A stretch of DNA of 64,000 bases from an uncultured Clostridia bacterium (GTDB lineage Bacteria > Acidobacteriota > Aminicenantia > UBA2199), in the NCBI GenBank assembly GCA_964628035.1, contig CAZVPI010000008.1, positions 29,437 to 93,436 on the forward strand. Reading direction: 5' to 3'. The translations under genes were made by a program, and so were the position numbers. The notes under the pieces were generated by a model. The model was not told the DNA's origin, did not search any database, and saw nothing but the letters and a program-made list of their open reading frames with translations. This document shows positions 26,759 to 56,724 of this stretch, in pieces (position 1 is the stretch's first letter; every line of letters starts with the position of its first letter).

Positions 26759-29568
<2,810 letters not shown>

Positions 29569-29592
29569 ACGGTAGTCAGTAGACAGTAGAAA

Positions 29593-29628: not shown

Positions 29629-29808
29629 GGGAAGAAATGGTAATAATAGTGATAGTGGCAGTAGCAGCGTAGAAGCGATCATTCAGCTCAAGCGCAAAGC
29701 ATCTTCTCTTGCTTTCCCCCTTTACCTCCCCCTTGATGACTGATTCTCGTTTCTAGGAGTGAGAAGCTCTTAGAGCGCGGCAGGCCCCCAAGCATCGAGT
29801 GCTCGCTA

Positions 29809-30865: not shown

Positions 30866-31632
30866 AAGCCGGCATCCGCGGCATCGCCGTCAACACCTTC
30901 CGTGAGTCGGCGCGCAACAAGATGTTCTACCTGCTCGTCTTCTTCGGCGTCCTTTTCGCCTTCAGCTCCAAGCTGGTCAGCTTCCTGACCCTCGGCGACG
31001 CCACGAAGGTGCTCAAGGACACCGGCCTGGCGGCCATCAATTTCTTCTGCGTGCTGATCGCCGTCTTCACCGGCATCAACCTGGTCTACAAGGAGGTCGA
31101 GAAGAAGACCGTCATCAACATCCTGAGCAAGCCCATCCGCCGCGAGGAGTTCATCCTGGGCAAGTTCCTGGGGCTGGCCCTGACCCTGCTGGCCGCCCTG
31201 GGCGCCATGGCCGCCCTCTTCTTCGCCTTCTTGGCCCTCTCCGGCGGCGGCTTCGACCTCGGCATCCTGCTCTACTTCTTCATGCTCTACCTGGAGCTGC
31301 TGATCCTCATCGCCCTGTCGCTGCTCTTCTCCTCCTTCACCACCCCCATCCTCTCCTTCCTCTTCACCGTGTCGCTCTACCTGATCGGCCAGGTGCTGTG
31401 GACCTACAACGAGTTCAAGGACTACCTGGCCGTCCCCGCCTGGCGGTTCGTCAGCGAAATATTCTATTACGCGCTGCCCAACCTGCACAAGTTCAACATC
31501 AAGAGCGAGGTGGTGCTGGGACAGCTGCCTGGCCTGTCCACGGTCCTCCATGCCGTTCTCTACGCGCTGCTGTACGTCGCCGCCCTGCTGGCCCTGGCCG
31601 TGCTGGTCTTCCGCAGCCGGGAATTCCGATGA
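30862..31632 (+). CDS. ABC-2 family transporter permease
   Basis: Start MKAGIRGIAVNTFRESARNKMFYLLVFF. Six predicted TM helices. Its ATG overlaps the ATPase stop (ATGA). Confidence 0.75.
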
Positions 31633-32498
31633 TGCGCCGCCCCACCGGCGAGGTCCTGAAGGGAGGCTGGCTCGCGGCGACGGCGCTGGCCGGCCTGCTG
31701 CTGGCCGGCGGCGCGCAGCAGCGCTACGACGCCACCGTCGACTACTTCGCGGAGCGCAACGCCTTCGTCTCCCTGCCCTCGGGCAGGACCCTGAAGGCCC
31801 TTTCCTTCGGCTATCACGCCCTGGCCGCCGACCTGCTCTTCATCTGGTCGATCCAGTTCTACTCGACCTATCACATCCGCAACCGCTTCGAATTCATCGA
31901 GCGGGTCTACGAGGCGATCACCGATGTGTCGCCGACCTACAAGTCGCCCTACATCGTCGGTTCGCTGATCATGGTCCACGAGAAGCGGGACGTGCCCATG
32001 GCCCTGCGCCTGCTGGAAAAGGGCTCGCGGCACAATCCCGACGAGTGGCTCTTCGACCACGACGCCGGCTTCTACTGCTACAAGTACCTGAAGGACTACG
32101 CCAGGGCGCAGAAGTACTACAACCGCGCCGCCGCCAAGCCCGGGGCGCCGCCGTTCCTCCGCCGCCTGAAGGCCCACATGGTCTACCTGCGCGACGACCC
32201 GCAGGTGGCCACGCGCATGTGGCTCGACATCTACCGCAACGCCAGGGACACCCTGACCCGCGACTCGGCCTTCAACCACCTGTACCAGATCAAGGCCGAG
32301 GCCGACCTGCCGCTGCTGGCCGAGAAGATCGCCGCCTACCGCGGGCGCTTCCGCAGGCCGCCGGCCGCCCTGTCCGATCTGGTCGCGGCCGGGCTGCTCC
32401 GCGAGGTGCCCCGGGATTTCGCCGGCCAGGAATACCGCTACGACCCGGCGAGCGGCGAGGTGACGGCGCAGAGGATATTCCGGTGGAAGAAGCGCTGA
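31629..32498 (+). CDS. Hypothetical protein with N-terminal membrane anchor
   Basis: ATGATG start overlapping the permease stop. MMRRPTGEVLKGGWLAATALAGLLLAGG, then a soluble domain rich in aromatics. No recognised motif. Confidence 0.5.
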   Translation: MMRRPTGEVLKGGWLAATALAGLLLAGGAQQRYDATVDYFAERNAFVSLPSGRTLKALSFGYHALAADLLFIWSIQFYSTYHIRNRFEFIERVYEAITDVSPTYKSPYIVGSLIMVHEKRDVPMALRLLEKGSRHNPDEWLFDHDAGFYCYKYLKDYARAQKYYNRAAAKPGAPPFLRRLKAHMVYLRDDPQVATRMWLDIYRNARDTLTRDSAFNHLYQIKAEADLPLLAEKIAAYRGRFRRPPAALSDLVAAGLLREVPRDFAGQEYRYDPASGEVTAQRIFRWKKR

Positions 32499-35044: not shown

Positions 35045-35163
35045 GGCGAGCATAAGGTGCCTGGGGGCATGTTGAGCTCCAGGCATTTTCCCCGGCTGAA
35101 ACAATAGAGTCCGAGAATGGCTGTTGCTGACACCAACGCTAACACCAACACTCGTTGTTCGGT

Positions 35164-35169
35164 TATAAT
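35164..35169 (+). promoter_or_regulatory. Candidate -10 box (TATAAT) immediately upstream of ispD, possible leaderless transcript
   Basis: GGTTATAATATGCCCATGAAAACC. The TATAAT ends 6 nt before the ATG at 35176. There is no SD sequence. Confidence 0.3.
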
Positions 35170-35175
35170 ATGCCC

Positions 35176-35853
35176 ATGAAAACCACAGCCATCATCCTGG
35201 CCGGGGGCACGGGGTCCCGTTTCAAGAGCAAGGAACCGAAACAGTTCCACAAGCTGGGAAAAAGGACATTGCTCGACCACTGCCTGCAGCGTTTCCAGGA
35301 GCACAAGGACATCGCGGAGATCGTCCTGGTCTGCCCCAAGGCCTTCCTGGGGAAGGCGCAAACGATCGCCGCCGGGTACAAGAAGGTGGCGATGGTCGTT
35401 GCCGGCGGCAGGACCAGGCAGCAGTCGTCGGCCATCGGCGTAGCCGCGGCCGGGAGCGCCGAGTTCGTCCTCATCCACGATGCGGCGCGAGCCGTGGTGC
35501 CGAGGGATGTCATCACCCGGGTGCTGAAGGCCCTGGCCCGCAGCGCCGCCGTCATGCCGGTGCTGGCCGCGGGGGACACCCTTGTGCGCGTGGACGACAA
35601 GGGAACGGTGAACGCCGTGCTCGATCGCGAAAAGCTGCGCCGCGTCCAGACCCCCCAGGGCTTCCGCGCTTCGATCATCCGCATCGCCCACCGCCTGGCC
35701 CAGGAAGACGGCAAGACCGACGCTCCCGATGACTGTTCGTTGATCCTGGCATACGGCCTGGCCCCGATCGCGACCGTGGAAGGAGACGCGGCCAATATCA
35801 AGATCACGGTTCCCCTGGATCTGAAACTGGCGGAGCCAATCCTGAAAACCTAG
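35176..35853 (+). CDS. ispD: 2-C-methyl-D-erythritol 4-phosphate cytidylyltransferase
   Basis: MKTTAIILAGGTGSRF is the IspD P-loop. VQTPQGFR. Confidence 0.85.
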   Translation: MKTTAIILAGGTGSRFKSKEPKQFHKLGKRTLLDHCLQRFQEHKDIAEIVLVCPKAFLGKAQTIAAGYKKVAMVVAGGRTRQQSSAIGVAAAGSAEFVLIHDAARAVVPRDVITRVLKALARSAAVMPVLAAGDTLVRVDDKGTVNAVLDREKLRRVQTPQGFRASIIRIAHRLAQEDGKTDAPDDCSLILAYGLAPIATVEGDAANIKITVPLDLKLAEPILKT

Positions 35854-35861: not shown

Positions 35862-35960
35862 GACGGCAAACGAGCGAACTAGCTTGGTGATTCGTAATTC
35901 GTGATCAGTGATTGGAACGGCATTGGTGGCGATCTCTAGCGAGCTATGGTGATTCGTAAT
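35862..35960. repeat. Direct repeat TGGTGATTCGTAATTCGTGAT x2 (family 4 relative)
   Basis: Copies at about 35869-35889 and 35938-35958. Confidence 0.5.
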
Positions 35961-35964
35961 TCGT

Positions 35965-36062
35965 GATTCTAGAAGAAAAATAGGTGAACGGTGTACGGTT
36001 TACGGTGTACGGGAAAATCCTAAGCCACCCAAGTCGTTCTTAGGCTTCTTCGTCTACCGTCC
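35965..36062. repeat. Short family 3 element (GGTGTACGG-type ends)
   Basis: GTGAACGGTGTACGGTTTACGGTGTACGG ... CGTCTACCGTCCACC. Confidence 0.4.
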
Positions 36063-36195
36063 ACCCAAAGTTGTTTATTCCTTTTACCTTTTACCTGCAA
36101 AGCACTCTTGCTTTACCCCCCCACCCCTTTACCCCTCTCCCCTGAATCCTGCTGTCAATTCCCGGGCGAATGCGCTATAATACGCCCCGTACCCC

Positions 36196-39100
36196 ATGAG
36201 CAAAAAACGCTTTCTCTTCACCGGTGGCGGCACCGGCGGCCACGTCTATCCCAATGTCGCCATCTACGAGGCGCTGAAGGAGAAGCATCCCGACGCCGAG
36301 TTCCTCTACGTGGGCACGCGCCGCGGCAGCGAGGCCTCGATCATCCCCTCCCTGCCCCAGCCCATGGAGTTCGTCGCCGTTCCCGCCCTGGGCCTGCCGC
36401 AGCGGCTGAAAAGCCCCAGGACGCTCCTGGCCGTCTTGGCCATCCTGTGGGGGGCGTTGCGCAGCCTGTTCATCCTGCGCCGCTTCAAGCCCGACGTGAT
36501 CATCGGCAGCGGCGGCTACGCGGCGGCGCCGGTGCTGCTGGCCGCGGCCCTGCTGCGCAGGCCGGTGTTCATCCACGAGCAGAACGCCGTGCCCGGGCGC
36601 ATGAACCTGTTCATCGCCCGCTTCGCCGCCAGGATCGGCGTCGCCTTCCCCTCGACGGCGGCGTTTTTCCCGGCGGCCAAGGTGGTCCAGGCCGGCTATC
36701 CGCTGCGCAAGTCGATCCGCGCCGCGGCCGCCAACGCCGCGGCGGCGCGGGAGAGGCTGGACATCCCGCCCAATAGCCGCGTCCTCTTCATCTGCAGCGG
36801 CAGCATGGGGGCGCGCACCATCAACCGCGCCGCGGTCGAGGCCATGCCGCGCCTGCTCTCCATCCCCAACCTCTTCGTCGTCATGTCGACAGGCAAGGCC
36901 TACGGCAAGGCCTACAAGGCCTACGACGACACGGTGAGCCGGCTGGAGCGCATGGGCTATCCCCCGCAGATCGAAGGCCGGCTGCTGGTGCAGGAGTATT
37001 TCGACCCGGTCGCCGACGTTTACGCCGTGTCCGACCTGGTGGTGGCCCGGGCCGGCGCCGGCACAGTCCAGGAGCTCGGGGCCCGCGGGCTGCCCGCCAT
37101 CCTGGTGCCCAAGATCGACCTGCCCGGAGACCACCAGGTGCTGAACGCCCGCGAGGTCGAGAAGGCCGGCGGCGCCCGCGTCCTCTATGAGGAGGCGCAG
37201 CCGGGTGGCAAGGCGGGGCGGATCGTCCTGTCCGCCGACTCCCTGGCCTCGGCGGTCGAGGAGCTGCTCGCCGCCCCCGAGCAGCTGGGAACCATGCGCC
37301 GCCACCAGCTGGCTGGCGAAAGGCGCGACAGCGCCGCCGTCATCCTGGAGGCGCTGGAGCGCATGGAAGCCGGCCGCGAGAAGGCCGAAACCGGCGAGAT
37401 CAAGGTCTTCTACCTGCAGGCGGTCGACGAGGAGAAGAACCTGGAGCTCCCCTTCCCCTCGACGGTGGTCGGCAACACGTTCCTGAGCGACGTGGTGCTG
37501 GAAAAGGCCGCCGCCCCCGTCCGCTTCACCATCAAGCTCCTGCCCGAGGGCGATGTTCCGGCCATGGTCCGCCTGCAGCGCGGCCGCGTGCTGCTCAACG
37601 GCCGCCCGGTCAGCGACTGGCTGCCCCTGCATTCCGGTGACCGGCTGGAGGTCGAGGATCACGCCTACGTTTTCAAGAGCTACCAGGAAAAGGTCGCCGA
37701 CAAGGACCGCAGCGTCTGCCCCAGCGCCGCCGCCCATCCCGGCTCGCCCCTGGTGGCGCGGCTGGCCGACTTCGGCCGCGCCATCGCCGCCGCAGCCCTG
37801 TTCGGCGCCGGCCGCGTGGTCGACGCCTTCACCGCCGCCCTGGCCGTCGTCGGCTTCCTGCGCCGGCTGGTCGGCGCCAACGCCATGAGCCGCGTCTTCA
37901 TGCCCATCTTCGCCCGCCTCTTCCAGCGCGCCTCGCGGGGCAAGGCCTGGGAGGCGGCCACGGCGCTGAGCGCCGGCACCGCCCTGCTGTCTCTGGCCAT
38001 CGCCGTGCTGGGCCTGCTGCTGGCGCCGGCGCTCGTGGGCCTGGCCTTCCCCGGCTTCGGCCCAGGCGGCACCGCCACCACGGCGGCCAACATGCTGCGC
38101 ACGCTGCTGCCCGCGGCCTTCCTGGGCACGCTGGCGGCGCTGGCCTCCGTCTACCTGCGCGCCTTCGGCAGGCGCCTCGTCACCGAGGCCTCGGGCCTGC
38201 TGTTCACCGTCGCGGCCATCGCCGGCATTTTCCTCTTTTACCACGGCAGCGGCCCCTATGCCCTGGCCTGGAGCATCCTCCTGGCCTCGCTGCTGCAGGT
38301 GGCCCTGCTGGCCCCCTACCTGGCCGCGACCCTGGCCCGGCCCGAGCTGGAGTTCGTCTTCCGGCCGTCGTTCCGCGCCTCGCGCCAGGTGAACCGCAAG
38401 TACGTCGCCCGCCTGGCGCCGGCCGGCCTGGGCGCCGCCCTGTCCCACGCGCCGCCGCTGATCGAGCGCTGCATCGGCTCCTGGCTGGCGGTCGGCTCGG
38501 TCTCGGCCCTCTATTTAGCCACCGAGCTGGCCCGCCTGCCCTTCACCCTGGTGGCGCGCGCCGCCCAGGGCCGGACGCTGCGCGACCGCCAGGCCCCGGT
38601 CATGCCCATGGACCGGGCGCGGCAGAGCCGGGTGCTGGCCGACGGCTTCCGCGACAACCTGTTCCTGCTGGCGCCGCTTTCGATCCTGCTGGTCGTGCTG
38701 GCCGGCCCCTTCGTCTCGCTGCTGCTCGCCCGCGGCCACTTCTCCGCCGCCGAGGCGGCGGCCACGGCCCGCGTCCTGCAGTTTTACGCCATCGGCCTCA
38801 GCGGCTGGGGGCTGCAGGCGCTGACCGCGCGCCTGTTCCACTCGCGCCTGGAGGAGCGCAGCGCCATCGTCACCGACCTGCTGCTGCTGGCCGTGCAGCT
38901 GCCGCTCACGGTCGCCCTGGCGCGCACCAGCCTGGGCGTCGCCGGCATCGCCCTGGCCGCCTCGCTGGCGGCGCTGGCGGTCGGCCTGGGCCGCGTCGCC
39001 CTGCTGCAGCTGCGCCTGCGCCGCGAAGGGGCGGCCCCGGCGGCGGGCGAATTCGCCTCCTCGACGCTGAAGACCCTCGGCGCCTCGCTGCTGATGGTCA

Positions 39101-39975
39101 TCGCCCTGGCCGAGGCCGAGTTCGTCTTCCGCCGCATCGAGTTCCGCGTGCCCTTCTGGCGCGACCTGATCCTCTGCGTGTCGCTGGCCTTCATGGGCAC
39201 GGCGGTCTATCTCCTGGCCTCGCTGCTGCTCAAGAACAAGGGCATCCTGATGTTCCGCAAGCGCCGGCGCGACCGGCGCAACGGCGCCCCGCTGTCGCTG
39301 CTGTCGCCGTTCCGCTTCCTGGACGTGGTCTCGGCCAACCCCGATTTCTACAAGGCCGAGTACCGCTACAAGACCGGCGTCTACCTGGCCAGCCCTTCCT
39401 GGGAGGTGCGCAACGTCGGCATCAAGCTGGCCGGGCTGTTCAAGGACCGCTCCAAGGTCCCGTACCTGACCGACCTGCTGAACAGCGGCCGGGCCAACGG
39501 TTTCATGCGCCGCAACGCCCTGCAGGCGCTGCGCAGCATCAACCCCTGGGGCCCGGAGCTGGAGGAACTGGCCCTGCGCCTGCTCCGCGACCGCTACTAC
39601 GAGGTGCGCAGCGCCGCCATCGACTGGCTGGGGCAGAACATCGGCGAGGCCGGATACGCCCGCCTGCGGCCGCTGCTGGAACGGCGCCTGGCGCGGGGCG
39701 GCATCCAGGAAAAGACCGCCTGCCTGCGCCTGGTCGCACGCAAGGGCGGTCTGGAGGACCTGCCGCGGCTGCGCCGGCTCTACCTGCACAGCAGCTCGCT
39801 GCTGCGCGAGGAGGTGCTGGAGGCCCTCTACTCCTTCCTGCGCCGCGGCCTGCTCGAGGCCGACGCCGCGCGCCGCGAGGCCCGGCAGGTGCTGGTCACC
39901 TCCGACCACCTGACCCCCGAGTTCCGCGTCAAGTCCATCCTGCTGCGCATCCTCCGCGAGAGTGAACGCCCATGA
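36196..39975 (+). CDS. Single 1259-aa polypeptide fusing MurG (GT28 lipid II glycosyltransferase), an FHA-like domain, MurJ/MviN (lipid II flippase) and C-terminal HEAT repeats
   Basis: Residues 1-395 are MurG (RFLFTGGGTGGHVYPNVAI is the G-loop, GSGGYAAAP). Residues 405-495 are FHA-like (VVGNTFLSDVVL...RVLLNGRPV...GDRLEV). Residues 515-1040 are MurJ (FGAGRVVDAFTAALAVVGFLRRLVGANAMSRVFMPIFARL, about 14 TM helices). Residues 1070-1259 are HEAT-like repeats (EVRSAAIDWLGQ, RRNALQALRSI). There is no stop or frame break at the junctions in the supplied track. Confidence 0.8.
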   Translation: MSKKRFLFTGGGTGGHVYPNVAIYEALKEKHPDAEFLYVGTRRGSEASIIPSLPQPMEFVAVPALGLPQRLKSPRTLLAVLAILWGALRSLFILRRFKPDVIIGSGGYAAAPVLLAAALLRRPVFIHEQNAVPGRMNLFIARFAARIGVAFPSTAAFFPAAKVVQAGYPLRKSIRAAAANAAAARERLDIPPNSRVLFICSGSMGARTINRAAVEAMPRLLSIPNLFVVMSTGKAYGKAYKAYDDTVSRLERMGYPPQIEGRLLVQEYFDPVADVYAVSDLVVARAGAGTVQELGARGLPAILVPKIDLPGDHQVLNAREVEKAGGARVLYEEAQPGGKAGRIVLSADSLASAVEELLAAPEQLGTMRRHQLAGERRDSAAVILEALERMEAGREKAETGEIKVFYLQAVDEEKNLELPFPSTVVGNTFLSDVVLEKAAAPVRFTIKLLPEGDVPAMVRLQRGRVLLNGRPVSDWLPLHSGDRLEVEDHAYVFKSYQEKVADKDRSVCPSAAAHPGSPLVARLADFGRAIAAAALFGAGRVVDAFTAALAVVGFLRRLVGANAMSRVFMPIFARLFQRASRGKAWEAATALSAGTALLSLAIAVLGLLLAPALVGLAFPGFGPGGTATTAANMLRTLLPAAFLGTLAALASVYLRAFGRRLVTEASGLLFTVAAIAGIFLFYHGSGPYALAWSILLASLLQVALLAPYLAATLARPELEFVFRPSFRASRQVNRKYVARLAPAGLGAALSHAPPLIERCIGSWLAVGSVSALYLATELARLPFTLVARAAQGRTLRDRQAPVMPMDRARQSRVLADGFRDNLFLLAPLSILLVVLAGPFVSLLLARGHFSAAEAAATARVLQFYAIGLSGWGLQALTARLFHSRLEERSAIVTDLLLLAVQLPLTVALARTSLGVAGIALAASLAALAVGLGRVALLQLRLRREGAAPAAGEFASSTLKTLGASLLMVIALAEAEFVFRRIEFRVPFWRDLILCVSLAFMGTAVYLLASLLLKNKGILMFRKRRRDRRNGAPLSLLSPFRFLDVVSANPDFYKAEYRYKTGVYLASPSWEVRNVGIKLAGLFKDRSKVPYLTDLLNSGRANGFMRRNALQALRSINPWGPELEELALRLLRDRYYEVRSAAIDWLGQNIGEAGYARLRPLLERRLARGGIQEKTACLRLVARKGGLEDLPRLRRLYLHSSSLLREEVLEALYSFLRRGLLEADAARREARQVLVTSDHLTPEFRVKSILLRILRESERP

Positions 39976-41078
39976 TCGCCTGGCTCAGTGAACTGTTCGC
40001 CGACCTGCCCGGGCAGCGGCTGCTGACCTACATCACCTTCCGCGCCCTGATGGCCATCCTCACCTCGTTCGCCGTGGGCATCGTGCTGGGGCGGCGCATC
40101 ATCCGCGCCATCTACCAGCTGAACTTCCGCGACCGCGCCCGCGACTTCGGCGACATGTCGCCGCGCAACAAGGACGGCACGCCGACCATGGGCGGGCTGA
40201 TCCTCTTCTTCTCCATGCTGGTCTCGGCGCTGCTGTGGGGCAGCTGGCGCAAGCCCAACGACTTTTTCCTGATCACCATCCTGTTCACCGCCTTCTGGTT
40301 CACGGCGCTGGGCTTCTTCGACGACTACCTGAAGAACATCCGCGGCTCCAGCGACCTGGGCATGAACCGCGGCCTGAAGCTGCTGCTGCAGGGGCTGTTC
40401 GGCGTCATCCTGGCCCTGCTGGTGCTGGGAAGGGAATCGTCGCCGTTCGTCGCCGGCACGGCCACCCTGCTGCATGTCCCCTTCTTCAAGACGCCGCTGG
40501 TCGACCTGGGCGTCCTCTATTACCCGTTCATCGTGCTGGCGGTGATCGCCATCGCCAACGCCATCAACTTCGCCGACGGCCTCGACGGCCTGGCCAGCGT
40601 CCCCTCGGGGCTGGTGAGCGCCGTCTACGCCGTCTTCGCCTACATCATCGGCAACTCGATCGCCGCCAAGTACCTCTGGTTCTCCTACATCCCCGGGGCC
40701 GGCGAGCTGGTGGTGGCCCTGGCGGCGCTGGTCGGCGCCCTGGCCGCCTTCCTGTGGTTCAACGCCTACCCGGCCGAGGTGTTCATGGGCGACACCGGCT
40801 CGCTGCTCATCGGCGGCGTCATCGCCACGTCGGCGGTGCTGCTGAAGCAGGAGCTGCTGTTCCTGATCGCCGGCGGCGTCTTCGTCATCGAGTTCCTGTC
40901 GGTCTTCATCCAGGACGTCATCGGCATCAAGCTGCTCAAGCGGCGCCTCTTCTACCGCGCCCCCATCCACCACACCTTCCAGTTCCTGGGCATCGCCGAG
41001 CCCAAAATCGTCGTCCGTTTCTGGATCCTGGCCGTGATCTTCACCCTGGTCAGCCTGATCAGCATCAAGCTGCGCTGA
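39972..41078 (+). CDS. mraY: Phospho-N-acetylmuramoyl-pentapeptide transferase
   Basis: Its ATG overlaps the fusion gene stop (ATGA). MraY motifs NAINFADGLDGLA and FMGDTGSL. 10 TM helices. Confidence 0.9.
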   Translation: MIAWLSELFADLPGQRLLTYITFRALMAILTSFAVGIVLGRRIIRAIYQLNFRDRARDFGDMSPRNKDGTPTMGGLILFFSMLVSALLWGSWRKPNDFFLITILFTAFWFTALGFFDDYLKNIRGSSDLGMNRGLKLLLQGLFGVILALLVLGRESSPFVAGTATLLHVPFFKTPLVDLGVLYYPFIVLAVIAIANAINFADGLDGLASVPSGLVSAVYAVFAYIIGNSIAAKYLWFSYIPGAGELVVALAALVGALAAFLWFNAYPAEVFMGDTGSLLIGGVIATSAVLLKQELLFLIAGGVFVIEFLSVFIQDVIGIKLLKRRLFYRAPIHHTFQFLGIAEPKIVVRFWILAVIFTLVSLISIKLR

Positions 41079-41097: not shown

Positions 41098-43980
41098 ATG
41101 CCCGAAAAGCCGAACGGAGTTCAAGAAGCAAACCCCGACGCCACCCCCTGGCACGCCCTGAGCGCCGCCGAGGTCGCCCGCGAGCTCGCCACCCCGGCCG
41201 GCCGCGGCCTGGACGAGGAGGAGGCCGCCCGGCGCCGCGATCTGCACGGCCGCAACGAGATCGCGGCCGCGCCGCGCCCCACCTTCCTGAAGCTGCTGCT
41301 GGCCCAGTTCGACAACTTCATCATCCTGCTGCTGATCGGCGCCGCCGCCGTCTCCGGCTTCCTGGGGGAGTGGATCGAGGCGGCGGCCATCCTGGCCATC
41401 GTGCTGCTGAACGCCTTCCTGGGCGTGATCCAGGAGCAGCGGGCCGAGCAGGCGCTGGCCGCGCTCAAGAAGCTGGCGGCGCCCGAGGCGCAGGTGCTGC
41501 GCAACGGCTCGCGGCGCTCGCTGCCGGCGCCCGAGCTGGTTCCGGGCGACATCGTGTTCATCGAGGCCGGCAACTACGTGCCGGCCGACCTGCGCCTGCT
41601 GGAGGCGGTGAACCTGCGCCTGGAGGAGGCGGCGCTGACCGGCGAGTCGCTGCCGGTGGAAAAGGACGCCGCCATCCGCCTGGAGGCCGACGTGCCGCTC
41701 GGCGACAGGCGCAACACCGCCTTCATGGGCACGCTGGCCGCCGCCGGCCGCGGCACCGGCATCGTGGTCAGCACCGGCATGCACACGCAGATCGGGCTGA
41801 TCGCCGCCATGCTGCAGAAGGTCGAGCAGGAGTCGACGCCGCTGCAGAAGCGGCTGGACGGCCTGGGCAGGACTCTGGGCCTGGCCGCCATCGTCGTCTG
41901 CGCCGCCGTCTTCGCCCTCGGCCTGCTGCGCGGCCACGAGGCGCTGCAGATGTTCATGCTCGCCGTCGGCCTGGCCATCGCCGCCGTCCCCGAGGGGCTG
42001 CCGGCGGTGGTGACCATCAGCCTGGCCTTGGGCATGCGCGAGATGGTCAAGCGCCACGCCCTGATCCGCCGCCTGGCCTCGGTGGAGACGCTGGGCTCGA
42101 CCACGGTCATCTGCACCGACAAGACCGGCACCCTGACCCAGAACAAGATGACCGTCACCCGCCTGTGGGCCGACGACGACCTGGTCGAGGTCACCGACGC
42201 CGGCGCGGTGCTGGCCGGCGAGTTCCGCCAGAACGGCAGGGCCGTCGACATCAACGATCACCCGGCCATCGAGACCGCCCTGTGGATCGGCGCCCTGAAC
42301 AATGACGCCTGCATGGAGATCTCGGGCGAGAGCGGCGGCCGCGGCCCCACCTACCGCATGGTCGGCGACCCGACCGAGGGGGCGCTGCTGGTGGCGGCGG
42401 CCAAGGCCGGCTGCCTGCCGCGGCCCCTGTCCGAGGCCTACCCGCGCGTCTCCGAGGTGCCCTTCGACGCCACGCGCAAGAACATGATCACCGTGCACCA
42501 CATCTTCGCCCCGCGCCTGGCCGACTCCTCGCCCTTCGACGAGAGCCACCGCGACAGCGGCTACGCCGTGGCCGTCAAAGGAGCCCCCGACATGGTGCTG
42601 AAGCTGTGCAGCCGCTACCAGCGCCGCGACAACAGCGTGGCCCCGCTCGACGAGGCGACCCGCCAGCGCATCCTGGAGGCCAACACGGCCATGACCCGCG
42701 CCGCCCTGCGCGTGCTGGGCTTCGCCTACCGCGTCGACCAGGAGAAGCCCGACCCCCAGGACGTGCCGACGCTGGAGCGGGACCTGGTCTTCGTCGGCCT
42801 GGCCGGCATGATCGACCCGCCGCGCGCCGAGGTGGCGCCGGCGCTGGCCAACGCCGCCGCGGCCGGCATCCGCACCATCATGATCACCGGCGACTACCCG
42901 GAGACGGCGCGGGCCATCGCCTCATCGATCGGCCTGCTGCGCCCCGGCCACCAGGTGCTCAGCGGCCGCGACGTCGACCTGCGCAGCGCCGACGAGCTGC
43001 GGCGCGAGGTGCGCCGCACCGACGTCTTCGCCCGCGTCTCGCCCGAGCACAAGCTGCGCATCGTCGAGGCGCTGCGCGCCGAGGGCGAGGTGGTGGCCAT
43101 GACCGGCGACGGCGTCAACGACGCCCCCTCGATCAAGGCCGCCGACATCGGCGTGGCCATGGGCATCACCGGCACCGACGTGGCCAAGGAGAGCGCCGAC
43201 ATGGTGCTCACCGACGACAACTACGCCAGCATCGTCTCGGCCGTCGAGCAGGGCCGGATCATCTACGACAACATCCGCAAGTTCGTCTTCTTCCTCCTCT
43301 CCTCGAACGTGGCCGAGATCGCCATCATCTTCCTGGCCACCCTGGCCGGCCTGCCGGCGCCGCTGACCGTCATCCAGCTGCTGTGGCTGAACCTGCTGAC
43401 CGACGGCGCGCCGGCGCTGGCGCTGGCCATGGAGAAGGGCGACCCGGAGATCATGAAGCGCAAGCCGCGCCCGCCGGCCGAGCCGGTGATCAACTCCACC
43501 ATGCGCCTGGGCATCGTTGTGCAGACCGTGGCCCAGGCCGGCGCCGTGCTGACGGCGTTCGCCCTGGGGCTGCTCTGGCACCTGCGCGCCGGCGACGCGC
43601 TGCCCCCCGGCGCCAACCCCGTCGCCTTCCTGCTCGGCTACGACTGGCGCGGCCTGGACGTGCAGACCGCCGAGACCATGGCCTTCGTCACCCTGTCGCT
43701 GTGCGAGCTGTTCCGCGCCTACACCGTGCGCTCCGAGCGCCTGTCGGTGTTCCGCATCGGCGTCTTCTCCAACCGCTCCATGCAGCTGGCGGTGGGCGTC
43801 TCGCTGGCGCTGCTGTTCCTCGTCGTGTCCGTGCCGTTCCTGCAGCCTGTTTTCAACACCCATTTTCCCAGCGCCCGCGAGTGGGCGGTCGTGCTTGGAC
43901 TAGCCTTAGTGCCTGCTATGGCTGAAGAAATCACCAAGTGGTTCTTGCGGCGAGCTGACAAGAAACGGTTCTCGGCATAA
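41098..43980 (+). CDS. P-type cation-transporting ATPase (P2, Ca2+-ATPase-like)
   Basis: N-terminal domain HALSAAEVAREL...GL. Phosphorylation site ICTDKTGTLT. TGES. MITGDYPETA. Hinge MTGDGVNDAPSIKAADIGVAMG. Confidence 0.9.
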   Translation: MPEKPNGVQEANPDATPWHALSAAEVARELATPAGRGLDEEEAARRRDLHGRNEIAAAPRPTFLKLLLAQFDNFIILLLIGAAAVSGFLGEWIEAAAILAIVLLNAFLGVIQEQRAEQALAALKKLAAPEAQVLRNGSRRSLPAPELVPGDIVFIEAGNYVPADLRLLEAVNLRLEEAALTGESLPVEKDAAIRLEADVPLGDRRNTAFMGTLAAAGRGTGIVVSTGMHTQIGLIAAMLQKVEQESTPLQKRLDGLGRTLGLAAIVVCAAVFALGLLRGHEALQMFMLAVGLAIAAVPEGLPAVVTISLALGMREMVKRHALIRRLASVETLGSTTVICTDKTGTLTQNKMTVTRLWADDDLVEVTDAGAVLAGEFRQNGRAVDINDHPAIETALWIGALNNDACMEISGESGGRGPTYRMVGDPTEGALLVAAAKAGCLPRPLSEAYPRVSEVPFDATRKNMITVHHIFAPRLADSSPFDESHRDSGYAVAVKGAPDMVLKLCSRYQRRDNSVAPLDEATRQRILEANTAMTRAALRVLGFAYRVDQEKPDPQDVPTLERDLVFVGLAGMIDPPRAEVAPALANAAAAGIRTIMITGDYPETARAIASSIGLLRPGHQVLSGRDVDLRSADELRREVRRTDVFARVSPEHKLRIVEALRAEGEVVAMTGDGVNDAPSIKAADIGVAMGITGTDVAKESADMVLTDDNYASIVSAVEQGRIIYDNIRKFVFFLLSSNVAEIAIIFLATLAGLPAPLTVIQLLWLNLLTDGAPALALAMEKGDPEIMKRKPRPPAEPVINSTMRLGIVVQTVAQAGAVLTAFALGLLWHLRAGDALPPGANPVAFLLGYDWRGLDVQTAETMAFVTLSLCELFRAYTVRSERLSVFRIGVFSNRSMQLAVGVSLALLFLVVSVPFLQPVFNTHFPSAREWAVVLGLALVPAMAEEITKWFLRRADKKRFSA

Positions 43981-44088
43981 GGCGTAAGGCTTAGGGTGCA
44001 AGGGAAAAGCCATAGACCGTTCTTTGCTTTCCCTAAGCTGAGGTCTTTTCTTTTTTCCTTACGCCTTACGCCCTGCGCCCTACGCCGA
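43971..44088. mobile_element. MITE/REP-like element, family 2, copy B (short)
   Basis: The left end CTCGGCATAAGGCGTAAGGCTTAGGG overlaps the ATPase stop (TCG GCA TAA). The right end CCTTACGCCTTACGCCCTGCGCCCTACGCCGAG is its inverted complement. Confidence 0.55.
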
Positions 44089-44130
44089 GGACCTTGAAAA
44101 TCCCCTGAATCTGCGCTACAATCAATCATC

Positions 44131-44907
44131 ATGCGAAATCCGTTCAAACGCACGCCCAAGCCTCCCAAGCCGCCCAGAACCGTCTCCGTCTTCCGCGAGT
44201 ATTTCGAGCTCATCGCCGAGACGCTGATCTACGTGTTCTTCGTCAACACCTTCCTGCTGCAGTCTTTCGTCATCCCCACCCCCTCGATGGAGAGCACGCT
44301 GCTGGTCGGCGACCACCTGCTGGTCAACAAGGTGGCCTATTCCAACTCCATCAGCAAGCTCGGCAACTTCCTGCTGCCGCAGGTGGAGATCCGGCGCGGC
44401 ATGATCGTCACCTTCAAGGCGCCGCCCGACATGGAGAAGGAGTACGTCAAGCGCGTGATCGGCATGCCCGGCGACCGGCTGCGCATCGAGGGCCGCAGGG
44501 TGTTCGTCAACGGCCGGCAGCTCCCCGAGACCTACACGCAGTACATCGGCAGCGACTCCGCGGCCGGGTTCCCTCCGCAGAACCACTACGACTGGTACTT
44601 CCAGTTCCCCGTCAAGTTGCGCACGACGCAGCGGAACCCCGACGGCAGCGTCGACTACGTCGTCCCCCAGCGCTATTACTTCTGCATGGGCGACAACCGC
44701 GACAACTCCTTCGACTCCCGCTACTGGGGGCCGGTCCCCTTCGACTATGTCGTAGGCAGGCCCTGGCGCATCTATTGGTCGTACGAGTCGAACACCGAGG
44801 AGTACCTGACGCCGGGGCTGATCTACAAAATCAAGGACATCGCCTTGACTGTCGTGAGGTTTTTCTCGCATACCAGGTGGGAGAGAACTATTAAGGCTAT
44901 TGAATAG
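44131..44907 (+). CDS. lepB: Signal peptidase I
   Basis: PTPSMESTLLVGDHLLVNK is the S26 Ser box. KRVIGMPGD is the Lys box. GDNRDNSFDSRYWG. Confidence 0.9.
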   Translation: MRNPFKRTPKPPKPPRTVSVFREYFELIAETLIYVFFVNTFLLQSFVIPTPSMESTLLVGDHLLVNKVAYSNSISKLGNFLLPQVEIRRGMIVTFKAPPDMEKEYVKRVIGMPGDRLRIEGRRVFVNGRQLPETYTQYIGSDSAAGFPPQNHYDWYFQFPVKLRTTQRNPDGSVDYVVPQRYYFCMGDNRDNSFDSRYWGPVPFDYVVGRPWRIYWSYESNTEEYLTPGLIYKIKDIALTVVRFFSHTRWERTIKAIE

Positions 44908-44924
44908 AAACGAGCTCAGGACAA

Positions 44925-44976
44925 TTCAGCAACTGGAAGGTACGACGGTCCATCGAGGCACCATGTACCAGGTACC
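44925..44976 (+). repeat. Family B dispersed repeat, copy 5
   Basis: TTCAGCAACTGGAAGGTACGACGGTCCATCGAGGCACCATGTACCAGGTACC. Confidence 0.6.
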
Positions 44977-45044
44977 CAATACCATGTTAATGACAGAGGA
45001 ATGGCCACGGCAGAGACATCGGTATTCAACGTGGAACATAGAAT

Positions 45045-46910
45045 GTGGTACTTGGAACATCTAACAGAGCGTTCAGTTCCTTCGAATGGCGCGAGAGCCG
45101 ATATAATTTGACAAAGCAGCAAGAAATAAGCCACTTTAAAGGGCACTGGCTGGTTAATTATCAGAAGGAACAATACACTTTTCAAGATATTTTAGTTATT
45201 TTGCTTGAAATTCAGGATTATTTTAACAAAAACGGCATTGAATTTGAGAATTTAAATGTAAAAATCAATAATAAAGGCGATAAAAGTCATTATTTTAAAG
45301 AAAACCAAACTGTTTACTTGAATATTGGCGATAATTTGGCTGAATTTGAGGAAATTGGCAAAAAACCGGAAGAAATCGCCAAGTTCAAGGCACTAGGGAA
45401 ACCTGTCAAGACAGTTTCGCTGCTGTTTCCCAGGCTGGAAAGCGATCCAAGATGGCGGAGCATGGGGATGCCGGCAGGGCAGCTCCTATTGTCGTCAAGC
45501 CTCAAAGCCCATGGATTCGAGCCGGTTCCCCTTGCACTGGCGATTCCGGGCAAAATAAGCCTTTCTGGGGCGTTTTCGGTGGATTTGGCCGGCTTCACCC
45601 TGTTCGAGGACCTTCTGCCCCTCCTGAGGCCGGTTTTGGCCGATTTTCGCCTATCCTACAGGGGAATCGTGGCCGCAGGCGGCCCCTTCCCCACCCTGGC
45701 CCCCATGGCGGCCATGTACCACCTGCCCGAGATCAATTTAATGGTCCGCGGCGAGGCCGAATTCGTCCTGCCCGGGATCCTCGCTGCCTTGAATAAGAGT
45801 GACGCCGAAGGGTTCTTCTCCCATGAAGGGGTCTTCTGGCATCACGACGGGGTGATCGCCATGGCCGGCTTCGACAAGGTGGTTAGGCCGGACGACCTGG
45901 CCTCCCTGCCAATTGACCTGGGCTTCCTGAAGCCCAACGACCTGGGCAACGGCCTGGAGATGAACTTCTCCCGCGGCTGCCGCAGGGGCTGCGTCTTCTG
46001 CTGCCGGGCCCAGGGGAGCCGCATGCGGAAGATGCCGCCGTGGAAGGCCGGAGAGCTGCTGTCGGCTTACGCCGGCAAGGTCGACCGGCTCGGCGCCGGC
46101 GGCGTGGCAACCAGGACGGTCAACATCAACGACGACGACATCCTGCAGGACCCCGCATACGCCCGGGATATCTTTGCGGCCATCAAGCGGCAGGGGCTGC
46201 GCATTTTCGGCATCCAGACCTCGACCGCATCGCTGGCCAAGGCCGACGGCTCGCCGAACGCCCAGGTTCTCGAGTTGGCCGCCGACTCCGACCTTTTCGT
46301 CAATAGCGCTCCCCTGCTATGGCTGGGGACCGACACGTTCCTGCAAGGCCGCGCCCAACGGCTGGGAAAGAAGCTTCCTCCGCCTGCTCAATTCAGGGAA
46401 CTGCTGGCGGAGATGGAGCGACGGCGGATCCGCCATTATCACTATTGGATCAGCAGCGACGGCGATTCCACCTGGCCCGAATTCGTCGGGGAATTGGAAT
46501 CGATCTTTTCACTTTTCAAGGATTTCCCGAACTTCGGCCTTCTGGCCCACGCCCCCTTCCTCGTCCCCTATCCTTCCAGCGTCCTGTTCTCCCAGCTGCC
46601 AGAAAGCGATCCACGCCTGAAGATCAAGCTGGACATGGAAGCCCCCGATCCGCGCTTCCGCTACAAGGTCGTCGAGCGCATGGAGGCGTCCTGGCCCCAG
46701 CTCAATGCCCTGCTGCGCAACGAAAAGGCCGGAGGCGAGAAGGGCTTTTTTGATTTCCTGAAAGAAAAGGATCTAACGGCCGCCGCCCAGTTAGGGTATC
46801 ATTTTTTAAAGCAGGAAATGTTTCAAGACCCAAGGCGGGAGCCAGAGTTGCAAATCGCCAAGGGGATGCTGGAAGAAGTAATCGAAGATTACCTTGATCG
46901 TGGCTCGTGA
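45045..46910 (+). CDS. Radical SAM protein (probable B12-binding-domain class) with an N-terminal about 110-aa region encoded by about 30% GC DNA
   Basis: CxxxCxxC radical-SAM cluster motif in NFSRGCRRGCVFCC. The preceding ...MVRGEAEFVLPGIL resembles a cobalamin-binding Rossmann segment. Nucleotides about 45100-45420 are strongly AT-rich yet keep an open frame encoding Lys/Asn/Glu-rich protein-like sequence. The exact start is uncertain. Confidence 0.7.
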   Translation: MVLGTSNRAFSSFEWRESRYNLTKQQEISHFKGHWLVNYQKEQYTFQDILVILLEIQDYFNKNGIEFENLNVKINNKGDKSHYFKENQTVYLNIGDNLAEFEEIGKKPEEIAKFKALGKPVKTVSLLFPRLESDPRWRSMGMPAGQLLLSSSLKAHGFEPVPLALAIPGKISLSGAFSVDLAGFTLFEDLLPLLRPVLADFRLSYRGIVAAGGPFPTLAPMAAMYHLPEINLMVRGEAEFVLPGILAALNKSDAEGFFSHEGVFWHHDGVIAMAGFDKVVRPDDLASLPIDLGFLKPNDLGNGLEMNFSRGCRRGCVFCCRAQGSRMRKMPPWKAGELLSAYAGKVDRLGAGGVATRTVNINDDDILQDPAYARDIFAAIKRQGLRIFGIQTSTASLAKADGSPNAQVLELAADSDLFVNSAPLLWLGTDTFLQGRAQRLGKKLPPPAQFRELLAEMERRRIRHYHYWISSDGDSTWPEFVGELESIFSLFKDFPNFGLLAHAPFLVPYPSSVLFSQLPESDPRLKIKLDMEAPDPRFRYKVVERMEASWPQLNALLRNEKAGGEKGFFDFLKEKDLTAAAQLGYHFLKQEMFQDPRREPELQIAKGMLEEVIEDYLDRGS

Positions 46911-47031
46911 TTCGTGATTGGAACAGCAATAGTCGGTCTACTTGTATCTCTCATCAACTATTGCCATGGCTCGCAAATTTTCCATGCATGCTTTTCTCCA
47001 ATCACTGATCACTCATTACTAATCACGGATC
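46905..47031. mobile_element. MITE/REP-like element, family 4 (GTGATTCGTGATTGG-type ends), between convergent genes
   Basis: The left end CTCGTGATTCGTGATTGGAACAGCAATAG overlaps the radical-SAM stop (TCG TGA). The right end CCAATCACTGATCACTCATTACTAATCACGGATC overlaps the methyltransferase stop (TAG on the minus strand). Confidence 0.55.
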
Positions 47032-48401
47032 CTGCGCATGAGATACAGCACCCTCTTCGACCCTGCTACGGCTTCCCTGCGCTCGATCGCAAAATGCTTC
47101 TGGAACTCGCGTTCGAACCCCTCTTGGGTGTAGCCCGGGAAGACGTCCTCGCGGGTGGCCAGCAGCAGCCGCACCTGCGAATCGTCCTTGGGGATGAACT
47201 CGACGACCAGGCTGCGGCACAGGCGGCTGAAGAAGAGGGCGATCCTGGCCAGGGGCAGGTTGTTGCTGATGGCGAGGTGGTGGACCAGCGCCAGCGCCAG
47301 GACCATGTCGACGGGGCCGCGCTCCAGCAGCGACATGCGCTCGGTGTTCTCCCAGCCGATGCCCGGGCTGGGGTTGGTCATGTCGCCGACCAGGGGCAGG
47401 AGGAACTTGTCCTTCTCCCTGCGGCACTGCAGGTAGTTCTTCTCCACGGCGGCGGCGTCGATGTCGATGGCCACGGTGCGGATGCCGCGCGAGGAGGCCA
47501 GGCGGCTGAAGACGCCGCGGTTGGCGCCGATGTCCCAGACGTCGCGCGGCCCGCCCTGCAGGCACCCGGCGACGAATTCCCTCTTGGCCGCGAACGCCTG
47601 GTCGGAATAATTCGTGCCGTCGTAATATTCGGCCCATTCGCTGCCGCCCGGGCGCCAGGAGAGGTTGCGCACCGCCCCCTCCAGGCTGTTCAGCAGGGCC
47701 AGCAGCGCGAAGCGGCTCATGGGCCGTGACTTGGCCTGGACCGGCTTGTCGGCGTAGCGCTTCTGGGCGCGGGCGTGGGCGTGGATGTGGGACAGGAGCG
47801 AGAATTTCAGCCGCGTGCGCCAGGGCAGCAGGGCCGAGGCCAGGTCGAGCGGCAGGCCGTCCAGGTGCAGCCGCGACAGCTGGTTCAGGCGCACGTCGCG
47901 CCAGGCCATGATCGCCAGCGGCGCCAGGAAGTGCTGGCAGAACTGGCGGTAGGCCACCCAGGGCCGCCCTTCCGGGCAGCGCTCGAAGGAGAGGGTGTCG
48001 ATCAGCTGCGGCCGGCCGTCGACGAACTGCACGTTGTAGGCGCTGGCGTCCTTGAGCGACAGGCCGTGCTCCAGCGCCAGCTTCTGGATTTCCAGCGTCA
48101 GCAGCGCCGCGTCCTTGAGCTGGCTGAAGCTCCACTCGTAGGGGTAGGAGATGAAGGGGATCTTTTGCGGGCGGATGACCTTGTAGGCAAGATCCGGGGC
48201 CGCCGGCTCCGCATCGCATTCCTCGTGCGGGGTCAGCCGGTTGTCGGCAGCGAGCTTGTCGTAAAGCCCGGAGGCGATCAGGAGGTCGTAATCCTGGCGG
48301 CAGACCCGGTTGATTTGGCGGTAGAGAATGCCGTCGCGCCGGAACAGGAACCCGCTGGGGTCGCGGAAGGAGCCGGAGACGGCCTCCCGGTCACTGGCCA
48401 T
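47019..48401 (-). CDS. Two-domain protein: N-terminal domain of unknown function plus C-terminal class I SAM-dependent methyltransferase
   Basis: VWDIGANRGVFS is the SAM-binding G-loop. An acidic residue follows in AIDID. The N-terminal about 250 aa has no recognised motif. Protein-like composition. Confidence 0.7.
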   Translation of the reverse strand: MASDREAVSGSFRDPSGFLFRRDGILYRQINRVCRQDYDLLIASGLYDKLAADNRLTPHEECDAEPAAPDLAYKVIRPQKIPFISYPYEWSFSQLKDAALLTLEIQKLALEHGLSLKDASAYNVQFVDGRPQLIDTLSFERCPEGRPWVAYRQFCQHFLAPLAIMAWRDVRLNQLSRLHLDGLPLDLASALLPWRTRLKFSLLSHIHAHARAQKRYADKPVQAKSRPMSRFALLALLNSLEGAVRNLSWRPGGSEWAEYYDGTNYSDQAFAAKREFVAGCLQGGPRDVWDIGANRGVFSRLASSRGIRTVAIDIDAAAVEKNYLQCRREKDKFLLPLVGDMTNPSPGIGWENTERMSLLERGPVDMVLALALVHHLAISNNLPLARIALFFSRLCRSLVVEFIPKDDSQVRLLLATREDVFPGYTQEGFEREFQKHFAIERREAVAGSKRVLYLMRRIRD

Positions 48402-48830: not shown

Positions 48831-48840
48831 ATTCGAGCTT

Positions 48841-56722: not shown

Positions 56723-56724
56723 TT

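Follow-up and report, generated by a model that had tools for sequence, protein, structure and literature searches.

What is known of the transfer of lipid II between MurG and the flippase comes from indirect evidence, and a physical complex of MraY, MurG, and MurJ is uncertain. The identity of the flippase itself was long disputed. The locus described here lies within a 64-kb window (the whole stretch of DNA that was analyzed). The explanation that we favor, and consider likely, is that it encodes a conserved single chain composed of MurG, an FHA-fold spacer devoid of a phosphothreonine (pThr) pocket, a 14-helix MurJ, and a HEAT-like tail. Together with the adjoining mraY gene, this arrangement suggests that the last membrane steps of cell wall precursor synthesis are physically coupled, and the fusion would be a naturally preassembled complex in one chain, suited to cryo-EM and to assays that couple synthesis with flipping.

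Organization of the locus

The sequence-only reading had described one open reading frame joining MurG, an FHA-like module, MurJ, and HEAT repeats, and both the Pfam matches and homologs of the same architecture bear this out (Table 1). Among the profiles that it proposed for searching, Glyco_transf_28, Glyco_tran_28_C, MurJ, and HEAT_2 were matched, while FHA was unmatched in the window's copy. The overlap between the stop codon of the fusion and the start of mraY was likewise as described: TGA and ATG lie in the 4 nt (ATGA) that the two genes share, and mraY is predicted to be translationally coupled to the fusion. The mraY product passes the NCBIfam TIGR00445 equivalog cutoff (284.4 bits versus 192.05). 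A terminator scan inside the operon gave below-background matches only, and no dcw-borne canonical copy of murG, murJ, or mraY was found within the 64-kb window.

The ispD gene had been placed immediately upstream. It does precede the fusion in gene order, but 342 nt of intergenic DNA lie between them and contain a separate sigma70-like promoter match. The promoter scan of the region returned 2 consensus matches versus 0.5 expected; this one ends 15 nt before the fusion ATG, which would mean a very short leader. Because of the gap with its promoter-like site, and because more distant members lack the adjacency (it is absent in L001, L003, and L004), a functional link between ispD and the fusion was rejected.

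Table 1. Features of the fusion locus (coordinates refer to the window)
Feature	Coordinates	Strand	Remarks
ispD	35155..35853	+	Context; adjoining only in close relatives
Sigma70-like promoter match CTGTCA-18-TATAAT	36152..36181	+	Consensus match only
murG-FHA-murJ-tail fusion ORF	36196..39975	+	1259 aa plus stop, ATG start, uninterrupted
MurG (GT28) domain	36196..37368	+	aa 1-391; Pfam, motifs, Foldseek
FHA-fold beta-sandwich	37390..37698	+	aa 399-501; canonical pThr-binding residues absent
MurJ (MOP-family lipid II flippase) domain, predicted	37750..39255	+	aa 519-1020; 14 TM helices by homology
Cytoplasmic HEAT-like alpha-solenoid tail	39256..39972	+	aa 1021-1259
mraY	39972..41078	+	368 aa; TIGR00445
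P-type cation ATPase	41098..43980	+	Context; 19 nt after mraY; kept in close relatives only

The MurG and MurJ parts

Pfam Glyco_transf_28 matches aa 6-148 (E 3e-32, 111.9 bits versus a cutoff of 26.2) and Glyco_tran_28_C matches aa 196-371 (E 2e-21, 77 bits versus 22). The MurG motifs GGGTGGH (10-16), GSGGY (104-108), HEQN (127-130), GSxGAR (202-207), RAGAG..E293, and DHQ..NA (312-318) are kept in 112 to 120 of the 120 listed homologs, nearly all of them in at least 116. Alignment to 1f0k and 3s2u recovers the G-loop and donor-binding residues in E. coli numbering (GGTGGH, GGY, HEQN, GSxGA, E269, and Q289/N292), and Foldseek superimposes the model of this part on P. aeruginosa MurG:UDP-GlcNAc with a TM-score of 0.90 (0.80-0.90 across the E. 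coli and P. aeruginosa MurG structures). With its catalytic motifs intact, the MurG part looks like an active lipid II synthase.

The Pfam MurJ model matches aa 533-974 (E 4e-54, 184.3 bits versus a cutoff of 27.4), and the model of the MurJ part has TM-scores of 0.82-0.85 to solved MurJ structures. It aligns to residues 9-510 of E. coli MurJ, thus spanning all 14 TM helices, the N and C termini both being cytoplasmic, in agreement with the earlier view that the topology of the chain is self-consistent. By alignment, R522, R528, D543, and R556 are the counterparts of the essential E. coli cavity residues R18, R24, D39, and R52; they are kept in 101, 115, 113, and 106 of the 120 listed homologs, respectively. 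Where E. coli has the essential R270 (TM8), the alignment gives E777, a position that varies among family members; an Arg at +3 (R780), found in 81 of the 120, resembles an R/E swap with respect to E. coli R270/E273. By its fold and the four conserved cavity positions, the MurJ part looks like an active 14-helix lipid II flippase; the R270 position and the scores of the MurG and MurJ parts under their NCBIfam equivalog cutoffs (given below) count against the explanation favored here.

A HEAT-like tail shared with other MurG proteins

HEAT_2 matches aa 1064-1143 above its cutoff of 27.7 bits (E 1e-8, 35.8 bits; E 2.8e-13, 50.4 bits when the tail is scanned alone). The tail profile matches alphaRep and PP2A-A repeats (E 1.6e-24), and the structure model is all-helical over aa 1038-1195. 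The assignment of HEAT repeats after MurJ thus stands as regards their nature; their length is about 240 aa, not the about 190 first given. Of 150 representatives, 93 are matched by a tail HMM along almost the whole of the profile; in the 15 complete genes that were inspected, E values run from 1e-22 to 1e-40. Three polar motifs are invariant (W1069-x3-N1073-x-G-x-K1077-L, G1102-F-x-R-R1106-N1107, and D1132-x-Y-x-E1136), and these are common to all three architectures in which the tail occurs: MurG-FHA-MurJ-tail, MurG-tail, and MurJ-MurG-tail.

Judged by these matches, the tail is a specific MurG-associated domain that is also found on many unfused MurG proteins. It is probably a scaffold for protein binding; candidate partners are MraY, MurG, or both. 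Conserved and unstudied, it is a candidate organizer of the membrane steps of wall synthesis.

MurG-tail proteins are present in several phyla; that of Desulfacinum infernum (WP_084076270.1, 722 aa) is annotated simply as a "glycosyltransferase." Syntrophobacteria have a permuted fusion, MurJ-MurG-tail, which occupies the same purD-purE-sua5 locus as the MurG-tail gene in Desulfacinum, so that MurG and MurJ were fused at least twice and in different orders. In one MAG (L035), murJ, murG-tail, and mraY are separate genes that follow each other in this order with overlapping stop and start codons. Both MurG-tail and MurJ-MurG-tail proteins resemble the Aminicenantes fusion in their homologous MurG, in a HEAT-like tail of ~220-240 aa, and in the mraY gene directly downstream, and differ from it in lacking FHA and in the place of MurJ, which is absent, separate and upstream (L035), or N-terminal. 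Across all architectures, mraY lies directly downstream in 10 of the 10 loci examined, its start codon in most cases overlapping or abutting the preceding stop. The tail is the hallmark of this wider MurG-tail group. All 10 contexts are outside any dcw cluster.

Two independent joinings of MurG and MurJ argue for a functional coupling of MraY, MurG, and MurJ; at least two fusions of MurG and MurJ, in opposite orders, in different phyla, and always with mraY adjoining, are independent comparative-genomic ("Rosetta-stone") evidence that these two proteins work together. Natural chimeras of Mur enzymes have been reported, namely, MurE-MurF, MurC-Ddl, MurC-MurB, MurG-MurC, MurD-FtsW, and MraY-MurG, and were interpreted as stabilizing complexes or fixing stoichiometry (PNAS 2023, PMC10214165). 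The present protein likewise fuses peptidoglycan-precursor enzymes, but its two partners, a peripheral enzyme and a 14-TM transporter, act in consecutive steps of the pathway, and their fusion occurs in two domain orders. MurG-MurJ is absent from that survey, which left out unidentified species. In keeping with the sequence-only reading, which knew of no such protein, we found no description of a natural MurG-MurJ or MurJ-MurG fusion in the literature searched, exact phrases included; a broader search on MurG/MurJ fusions returned artificial reporter fusions or unrelated work only. No studies of MurG-tail or MurJ-MurG-tail proteins were apparent, and the Aminicenantes and dcw-evolution literature searched makes no mention of a displaced mraY or murG.

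A possible route for lipid II

In E. coli, lipid I and lipid II follow affinity gradients from one to the next of three separate proteins, MraY, MurG, and MurJ (PMC9046198). The Aminicenantes system would share with it the three activities, the order of the pathway, the catalytic and cavity motifs, and the folds; it differs in that MurG and MurJ form one polypeptide with two extra domains, in the translational coupling of mraY, and in its position outside dcw. The FHA and MurJ domains sit between MurG and MurG's own tail, an insertion permitted by the cytoplasmic location of the two MurJ ends. We propose that MraY, co-translated from the overlapping downstream gene, makes lipid I, to which the tethered MurG domain would add GlcNAc at the inner leaflet; lipid II would then be captured and flipped by the MurJ domain of the same or a neighboring chain. 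The FHA domain is flanked by short connectors (about 6 and 15 residues) that may keep MurG beside TM1 of MurJ, and the fusion would set a 1:1 stoichiometry and the proximity of the two enzymes. In published MurJ structures, TM1 lines the lateral portal. The model of aa 1-1200 (pTM 0.60) is of low confidence in the connectors and thus predicts no rigid interface between MurG and MurJ. We infer both the in-cis handoff and a housekeeping status for the fusion.

A broader reading, which we put forward tentatively and hold to be somewhat less probable than its contrary, is that MurG-tail, MraY, and MurJ constitute an unrecognized multiphylum lipid II module outside dcw, in which the tail would be a physical bridge between MurG and MraY and/or MurJ; on this reading, the single Aminicenantes chain would serve as the only, and obligate, lipid II synthase-flippase of these bacteria, with in-cis handover. 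By MAG and strain labels, the phyla concerned are Acidobacteriota/Aminicenantes, Thermodesulfobacteriota, Latescibacterota, and possibly others.

Alternatively, the MurG-like, MurJ-like, and MraY proteins could be a paralogous set that stands beside a canonical dcw set and serves another undecaprenyl-linked glycan or a specialized or conditional wall. The location of all 10 contexts outside dcw would fit this, as would the scores of the MurG and MurJ parts under their NCBIfam equivalog cutoffs (TIGR01133, 221.8 bits versus 250.25; TIGR01695, 195 bits versus 235.55) and the nonconserved R270 equivalent; moreover, alternative MurG enzymes are known in Streptomyces (PMC8092295). We nevertheless consider a paralogous set unlikely, given that the adjoining MraY scores as a true equivalog and the UDP-GlcNAc-binding motifs of MurG are invariant. 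The MurG domain is also 35-47% identical to ordinary standalone MurGs and equally similar to MurG-tail proteins, and it is MurG and MurJ, rather than other GT-B enzymes or Wzx flippases, that come closest to the fusion parts among solved structures.

The FHA-fold domain

Between MurG and MurJ, the family profile and the structure model recognize a beta-sandwich with an FHA fold, a folded and conserved junction flanked by low-confidence connectors at aa 394-399 and 502-516. FhaA is among its close structural matches. In mycobacteria, the cytoplasmic pseudokinase domain of MviN is phosphorylated and then bound by an FHA domain (the MviN-FhaA-PknB system), and the domain found here had been taken for a built-in phospho-signaling module of that kind. 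The FHA fold stands, but the canonical pThr-contacting residues are absent. In the register given by alignment of the 120 listed homologs, the Arg of G-R is never Arg (0/120) and is Asn in 106; in S-x-x-H, the residue in place of Ser varies and the His, never found (0/120), is replaced by Phe (70/120) or an aliphatic residue; and the Asn of S-x-N-G is replaced by Lys (74/120) or Arg (29/120).

That the module is nevertheless a working pThr reader, placing lipid II export under Ser/Thr kinase control in cis as FhaA does with phosphorylated MviN, appears improbable in light of these substitutions, and the profile searches point the same way. Scanned by itself against Pfam at E<=10, the linker matched no model, FHA (PF00498) included; only 2 of 39 relatives reach an E value of 0.09 with PF00498, and the best Pfam match among the relatives is Yop-YscD_cpl, which we take to be a phospho-independent, membrane-adjacent FHA-like family. 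Across its 1259 aa, the protein gave no kinase or pseudokinase match in Pfam and NCBIfam scans. In addition, FHA is missing from MurG-tail proteins and from the permuted fusion (MurJ-MurG-tail), so the domain would be dispensable for coupling. The phospho-signaling proposal is thus not supported, and the resemblance to MviN-FhaA-PknB, in which an FHA-fold domain is also associated with a MurJ flippase, is one of parts and not of mechanism: the fusion's MurJ has no pseudokinase, and its FHA domain lies in cis, N-terminal of MurJ. As part of the overall explanation that we prefer, the FHA domain is likely a spacer that no longer has a pThr pocket. Phospho-independent FHA-like domains beside membrane segments occur in YscD/PrgH of type III and EssC of type VII secretion systems, where they scaffold the secretion machines; the domain in the fusion differs in that it links MurG to MurJ.

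Conservation of the fusion

The sequence-only reading had suggested looking for co-linear MurG-MurJ proteins in other genomes, and these proved to be numerous. Among 120 homolog clusters listed, drawn from JGI, ENA, NCBI, and Logan assemblies of independent metagenomes, at least 118 encode proteins of 1240-1290 aa with the same domain set at 38-100% identity. They are mostly labeled Aminicenantes/Acidobacteriota, and all fusion members are uncultured MAGs. Because so many clusters from independent metagenomes show the same architecture, the fusion is, to judge from this comparison, a genuine conserved single polypeptide and not an assembly artifact. The notion that an assembly, frameshift, or gene-calling error merged adjacent murG and murJ genes, for which one could cite that the window is a single sequence and that the databases clearly contain some fragments and split genes, has next to no probability and is effectively refuted by the uninterrupted frame of similar length in these clusters, by a junction that is a folded conserved domain with no read-through spacer, and by a GC3 of 0.95 along the whole frame.

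Such fragments also account for "MurJ-HEAT only" proteins (P0150, P0283, and others), which were considered as a fourth architecture and rejected: P0150 is on a 2.4-kb contig, while P0283 (771 aa) and P0316 (529 aa) are on one contig and have a cluster mate of 1305 aa. A single-protein search of genome contigs gave, among the matches listed, a few close relatives and unrelated standalone murG genes. Five additional full-length 50%-identity representatives were found, and a second tier of proteins of about 1290-1333 aa, with 32-37% identity, also contains the FHA-like linker.

MurG and MurJ in one continuous frame

The sequence-only reading had joined MurG, an FHA-like module, MurJ, and HEAT-like repeats in one ORF, and Pfam and NCBIfam profile searches on the translation place MurG, MurJ, and HEAT in a single uninterrupted frame, whose GC3 is 0.95 along its whole length. 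Among 5.8 billion clustered proteins, at least 120 homolog clusters were found, and 118 of the 120 listed are 1240 to 1290 aa long, 38 to 100% identical over ~100% of the fusion, and identical in Pfam set. Co-linear MurG-MurJ proteins, which that reading suggested looking for elsewhere, are thus represented by at least 118 clusters from JGI, ENA, NCBI, and Logan assemblies, which rules out an assembly artefact. All fusion members are from uncultured organisms, labeled, where named, as “Candidatus Aminicenantes” or Acidobacteriota MAGs, with a few deviant bin labels. Product names are mostly single-function (“MurJ,” “glycosyltransferase,” “lipid II flippase MurJ,” or “hypothetical protein”), while the JGI name is a double MurG/MurJ. 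No canonical murG, murJ, or mraY was found besides the fusion locus within the 64-kb window.

Features of the fusion protein and of the window
Feature	Position	Strand	Remark
ispD	35155-35853		upstream of fusion
Fusion ORF	36196-39975	+	1259 codons, ATG start
Glyco_transf_28	aa 6-148 of fusion		Pfam
Glyco_tran_28_C	aa 196-371 of fusion		Pfam
MurJ	aa 533-974 of fusion		Pfam
HEAT_2	aa 1064-1143 of fusion		Pfam
mraY	39972-41078	+	368 codons, NCBIfam equivalog
P-type cation ATPase	41098-43980	+	960 aa, starts 19 nt after mraY
Wzz/GNVR/P-loop tyrosine-kinase-type protein	50730-52979	-	paralog of 56725-59073
ORF	52976-54580	-	534 aa, no Pfam match
Wzy_C O-antigen-ligase-like protein	54570-55934	-	
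CpsB/CapC phosphatase	55931-56722	-	
Wzz/GNVR/P-loop tyrosine-kinase-type protein	56725-59073	-	paralog of 50730-52979
Pyruvate phosphate dikinase ORF	25939-29568	+	1209 aa
ORF	25909-29682	-	1257 aa, opposite the dikinase, spurious
ORF	23403-24398		coding-like GC3
ORF	31398-32498		coding-like GC3
ORF	45045-46910		coding-like GC3
ORF	47019-48401	-	coding-like GC3

Compared with the solved structures 1f0k and 3s2u, the MurG part retains GGTGGH, GGY, HEQN, GSxGA, the ribose-binding Glu (E293), and the DHQxxNA donor motif, and these residues are found in 112 to 120 of the 120 listed homologs. The MurJ part aligns with E. coli MurJ residues 9 to 510; R18, R24, D39, and R52 correspond to R522, R528, D543, and R556 (conserved in 101 to 115 of 120). 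The position of the essential R270 is Glu in the fusion and variable among the 120, and an Arg lies three residues further on in 81 of them. The pattern resembles an R/E swap on TM8 and calls for some caution over the MurJ part. An AF2 model of aa 1-1200 (119 sequences; mean pLDDT 85) superposes on solved MurG with TM-scores up to 0.90 and on solved MurJ with 0.82 to 0.85, best for inward-facing states. Since both MurJ termini are cytoplasmic, MurG, linker, and tail would all lie on the cytoplasmic side, and the topology proposed earlier is indeed self-consistent.

An FHA-fold linker without phosphothreonine-reader residues

The linker is conserved in the family, and searched alone it matched no Pfam model. 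Its fold is FHA, because a 39-sequence profile matches FHA domains in EmbR (E = 0.002), Dun1, KIF13B, and Ki-67, and the FHA-clan model Yop-YscD_cpl is matched by 4 of the 39 relatives (best E = 1.4e-6). Among the 120 listed homologs, the Gly of the G-R motif is invariant and its Arg position is Asn in 106 and Arg in none; in S-x-x-H the Ser position is variable and the His position Phe or aliphatic, and in S-x-N-G the Asn is replaced by Lys or Arg. The residues defining a phosphothreonine reader are thus missing family-wide, and Pfam finds no kinase-like domain in the fusion protein. The proposed FHA-like module therefore stands as a fold and probably not as a phosphothreonine binder, leaving both the built-in phospho-signalling and the analogy with FhaA control of MviN unsupported. 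The linker instead resembles the FHA-like modules of YscD and EssC, which sit beside the membrane and are phospho-independent.

A HEAT-like tail shared by three architectures

We searched 1.84 billion representative proteins with aa 1-1200 and dissected the best 150 matches with the four parts of the fusion. These comprise 63 MurG-tail proteins (600 to 780 aa), 54 plain MurG, 11 permuted MurJ-MurG-tail proteins (10 of 1137 to 1219 aa and a 908-aa piece, P0256), 6 MurG-FHA-MurJ-tail, 6 MurG-linker-MurJ-tail (32 to 37% identity), 2 truncated MurG-FHA-MurJ pieces, and 1 MurJ fragment; 7 apparent MurJ-tail proteins are fragments or split genes and were rejected as a separate architecture. Pfam confirms the permuted and MurG-tail forms. 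The family FHA HMM recognises the linker of P0145 to P0148 from the MurG-linker-MurJ-tail group, and FHA was seen only where MurG precedes MurJ. MAG labels, which are indicative only, are Syntrophobacteria or Deltaproteobacteria for permuted fusions, Planctomycetota and Myxococcales for the MurG-linker-MurJ-tail group, and Latescibacterota for one MurG-tail protein. In P0197 (985 aa), a further architecture, Pfam places pentapeptide repeats N-terminal to MurG-tail, which suggests that this unit takes varied N-terminal additions.

The HEAT-like repeats reported after MurJ are borne out. Of the best 150 representatives, 93 match the tail HMM of the fusion family along almost the full HMM (E = 1e-22 to 1e-40 in the 15 complete genes inspected), the tails of all three architectures have the invariant polar motifs W-x3-N-x-G-x-K-L, G-F-x-R-R-N, and D-x-Y-x-E in common, and their joint profile matches HEAT-like alphaRep and PP2A-A repeats (E = 1.6e-24). 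For these reasons the tail is, as judged from sequence, a specific MurG-associated HEAT-like domain rather than a chance repeat match. The invariant polar surface of the tail points to a defined partner, for which MraY, MurG, or MurJ would be candidates.

Gene context

The fusion TGA and the mraY ATG overlap as ATGA at 39972, as the sequence-only reading had it. The ispD gene, said to lie immediately upstream, does precede the fusion but is separated from it by 342 nt containing short direct repeats and a sigma70-like match (CTGTCA-18-TATAAT) that ends 15 nt before the fusion ATG. Three repeat families (35885-36142) could be regulator binding sites: a 21-nt perfect repeat, TGGTGATTCGTAATTCGTGAT, at 35885 and 35947, a 14-nt tandem pair at 35983-36010, and a C-rich 16-nt tandem pair at 36111-36142, directly 5' of the promoter-like site. 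No promoter or terminator match was found in the gap between mraY and the P-type ATPase gene. The ATPase gene may share a transcript with the cell-wall genes; it is kept in this position in the 74%-identity relative (L001/L002, 14909-17782) and not in distant ones.

mraY lies directly 3' in 10 of 10 loci examined, including three core-family loci (74%, 48%, and 38% identity; four if both places of the related protein P0004 are counted), one MurG-linker-MurJ-tail locus, three permuted fusions, and two MurG-tail genes. In one MAG (L035), murJ, murG-tail, and mraY are separate genes whose stop and start codons overlap. The order in a closed 4.7-Mb Syntrophobacteria-type genome is purD-purE-sua5-(MurJ-MurG-tail)-mraY, and in cultured Desulfacinum infernum it is purD-purE-sua5-(MurG-tail)-mraY. 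In the permuted fusion, MurJ was joined to the N terminus of an existing MurG-tail gene, an event independent of the Aminicenantes arrangement, with FHA and MurJ between MurG and tail. Near a MurG-linker-MurJ-tail gene, L036 encodes a 561-aa protein (19724-21409, minus strand) with HEAT_2 repeats and NosD/beta-helix domains.

A possible lipid II relay on one chain

In E. coli, MraY, MurG, and MurJ are separate proteins forming a relay through affinity gradients (PMC9046198), whereas the fusion carries MurG and MurJ on one chain. In the best-supported interpretation it would be a hard-wired MraY-to-MurG-to-MurJ relay, in which fusion would guarantee 1:1 stoichiometry and proximity of MurG and MurJ, the FHA spacer would tether MurG to TM1 of MurJ, and mraY would be translationally coupled. 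The AF2 model has a pTM of 0.60, its connectors (aa 394-399 and 502-516) are short, flexible, and of low confidence, and no rigid MurG-MurJ interface is predicted. A paralog or an alternative-substrate system is an unlikely reading, in favor of which are the displaced R270-equivalent and NCBIfam scores below the equivalog cutoffs for murG (aa 3-386; 221.8 versus 250.25) and murJ_mviN (aa 517-1016; 195 versus 235.55); for the gene that follows the fusion, the mraY equivalog match is clear (284 bits versus 192).

The natural Mur chimeras listed in a 2023 survey are MurE-MurF, MurC-Ddl, MurC-MurB, MurG-MurC, MurD-FtsW, and MraY-MurG; MurG-MurJ is absent from this survey, which left out unidentified species (PMC10214165). 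Phrase and keyword literature searches turned up no account of MurG fused to MurJ, agreeing with the earlier statement, and none of a MurG with a HEAT tail. The novelty is one of architecture, built from known families in proteins already public under single-function names. For the cell-wall field, the fusion provides Rosetta-stone evidence for MurG and MurJ working together and a structural-biology handle on lipid II hand-off, and the family draws attention to the tail as an unstudied MurG-associated domain.

Other features of the window

GC content is ~0.64 to 0.73 over 26-44 kb and drops to 0.50 to 0.60 in 2-kb blocks at 44-46, 48-50, and 58-64 kb; the low-GC regions (44001-50000 and 58001-64000) may be horizontally acquired. 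A polysaccharide-export locus occupies 50730-59073 on the minus strand. The pyruvate phosphate dikinase ORF, matched by PPDK_N in three stretches, is longer than its syntenic counterparts in L002 and L004 (913 to 961 aa), reflecting either an over-extended start or insertions. None of the four sizeable ORFs noted for coding-like GC3 has a Pfam match at E ≤ 0.001; that at 45045-46910 has a counterpart in a 624-aa or 622-aa no-Pfam gene beside a signal peptidase gene in L001/L002 and L004.
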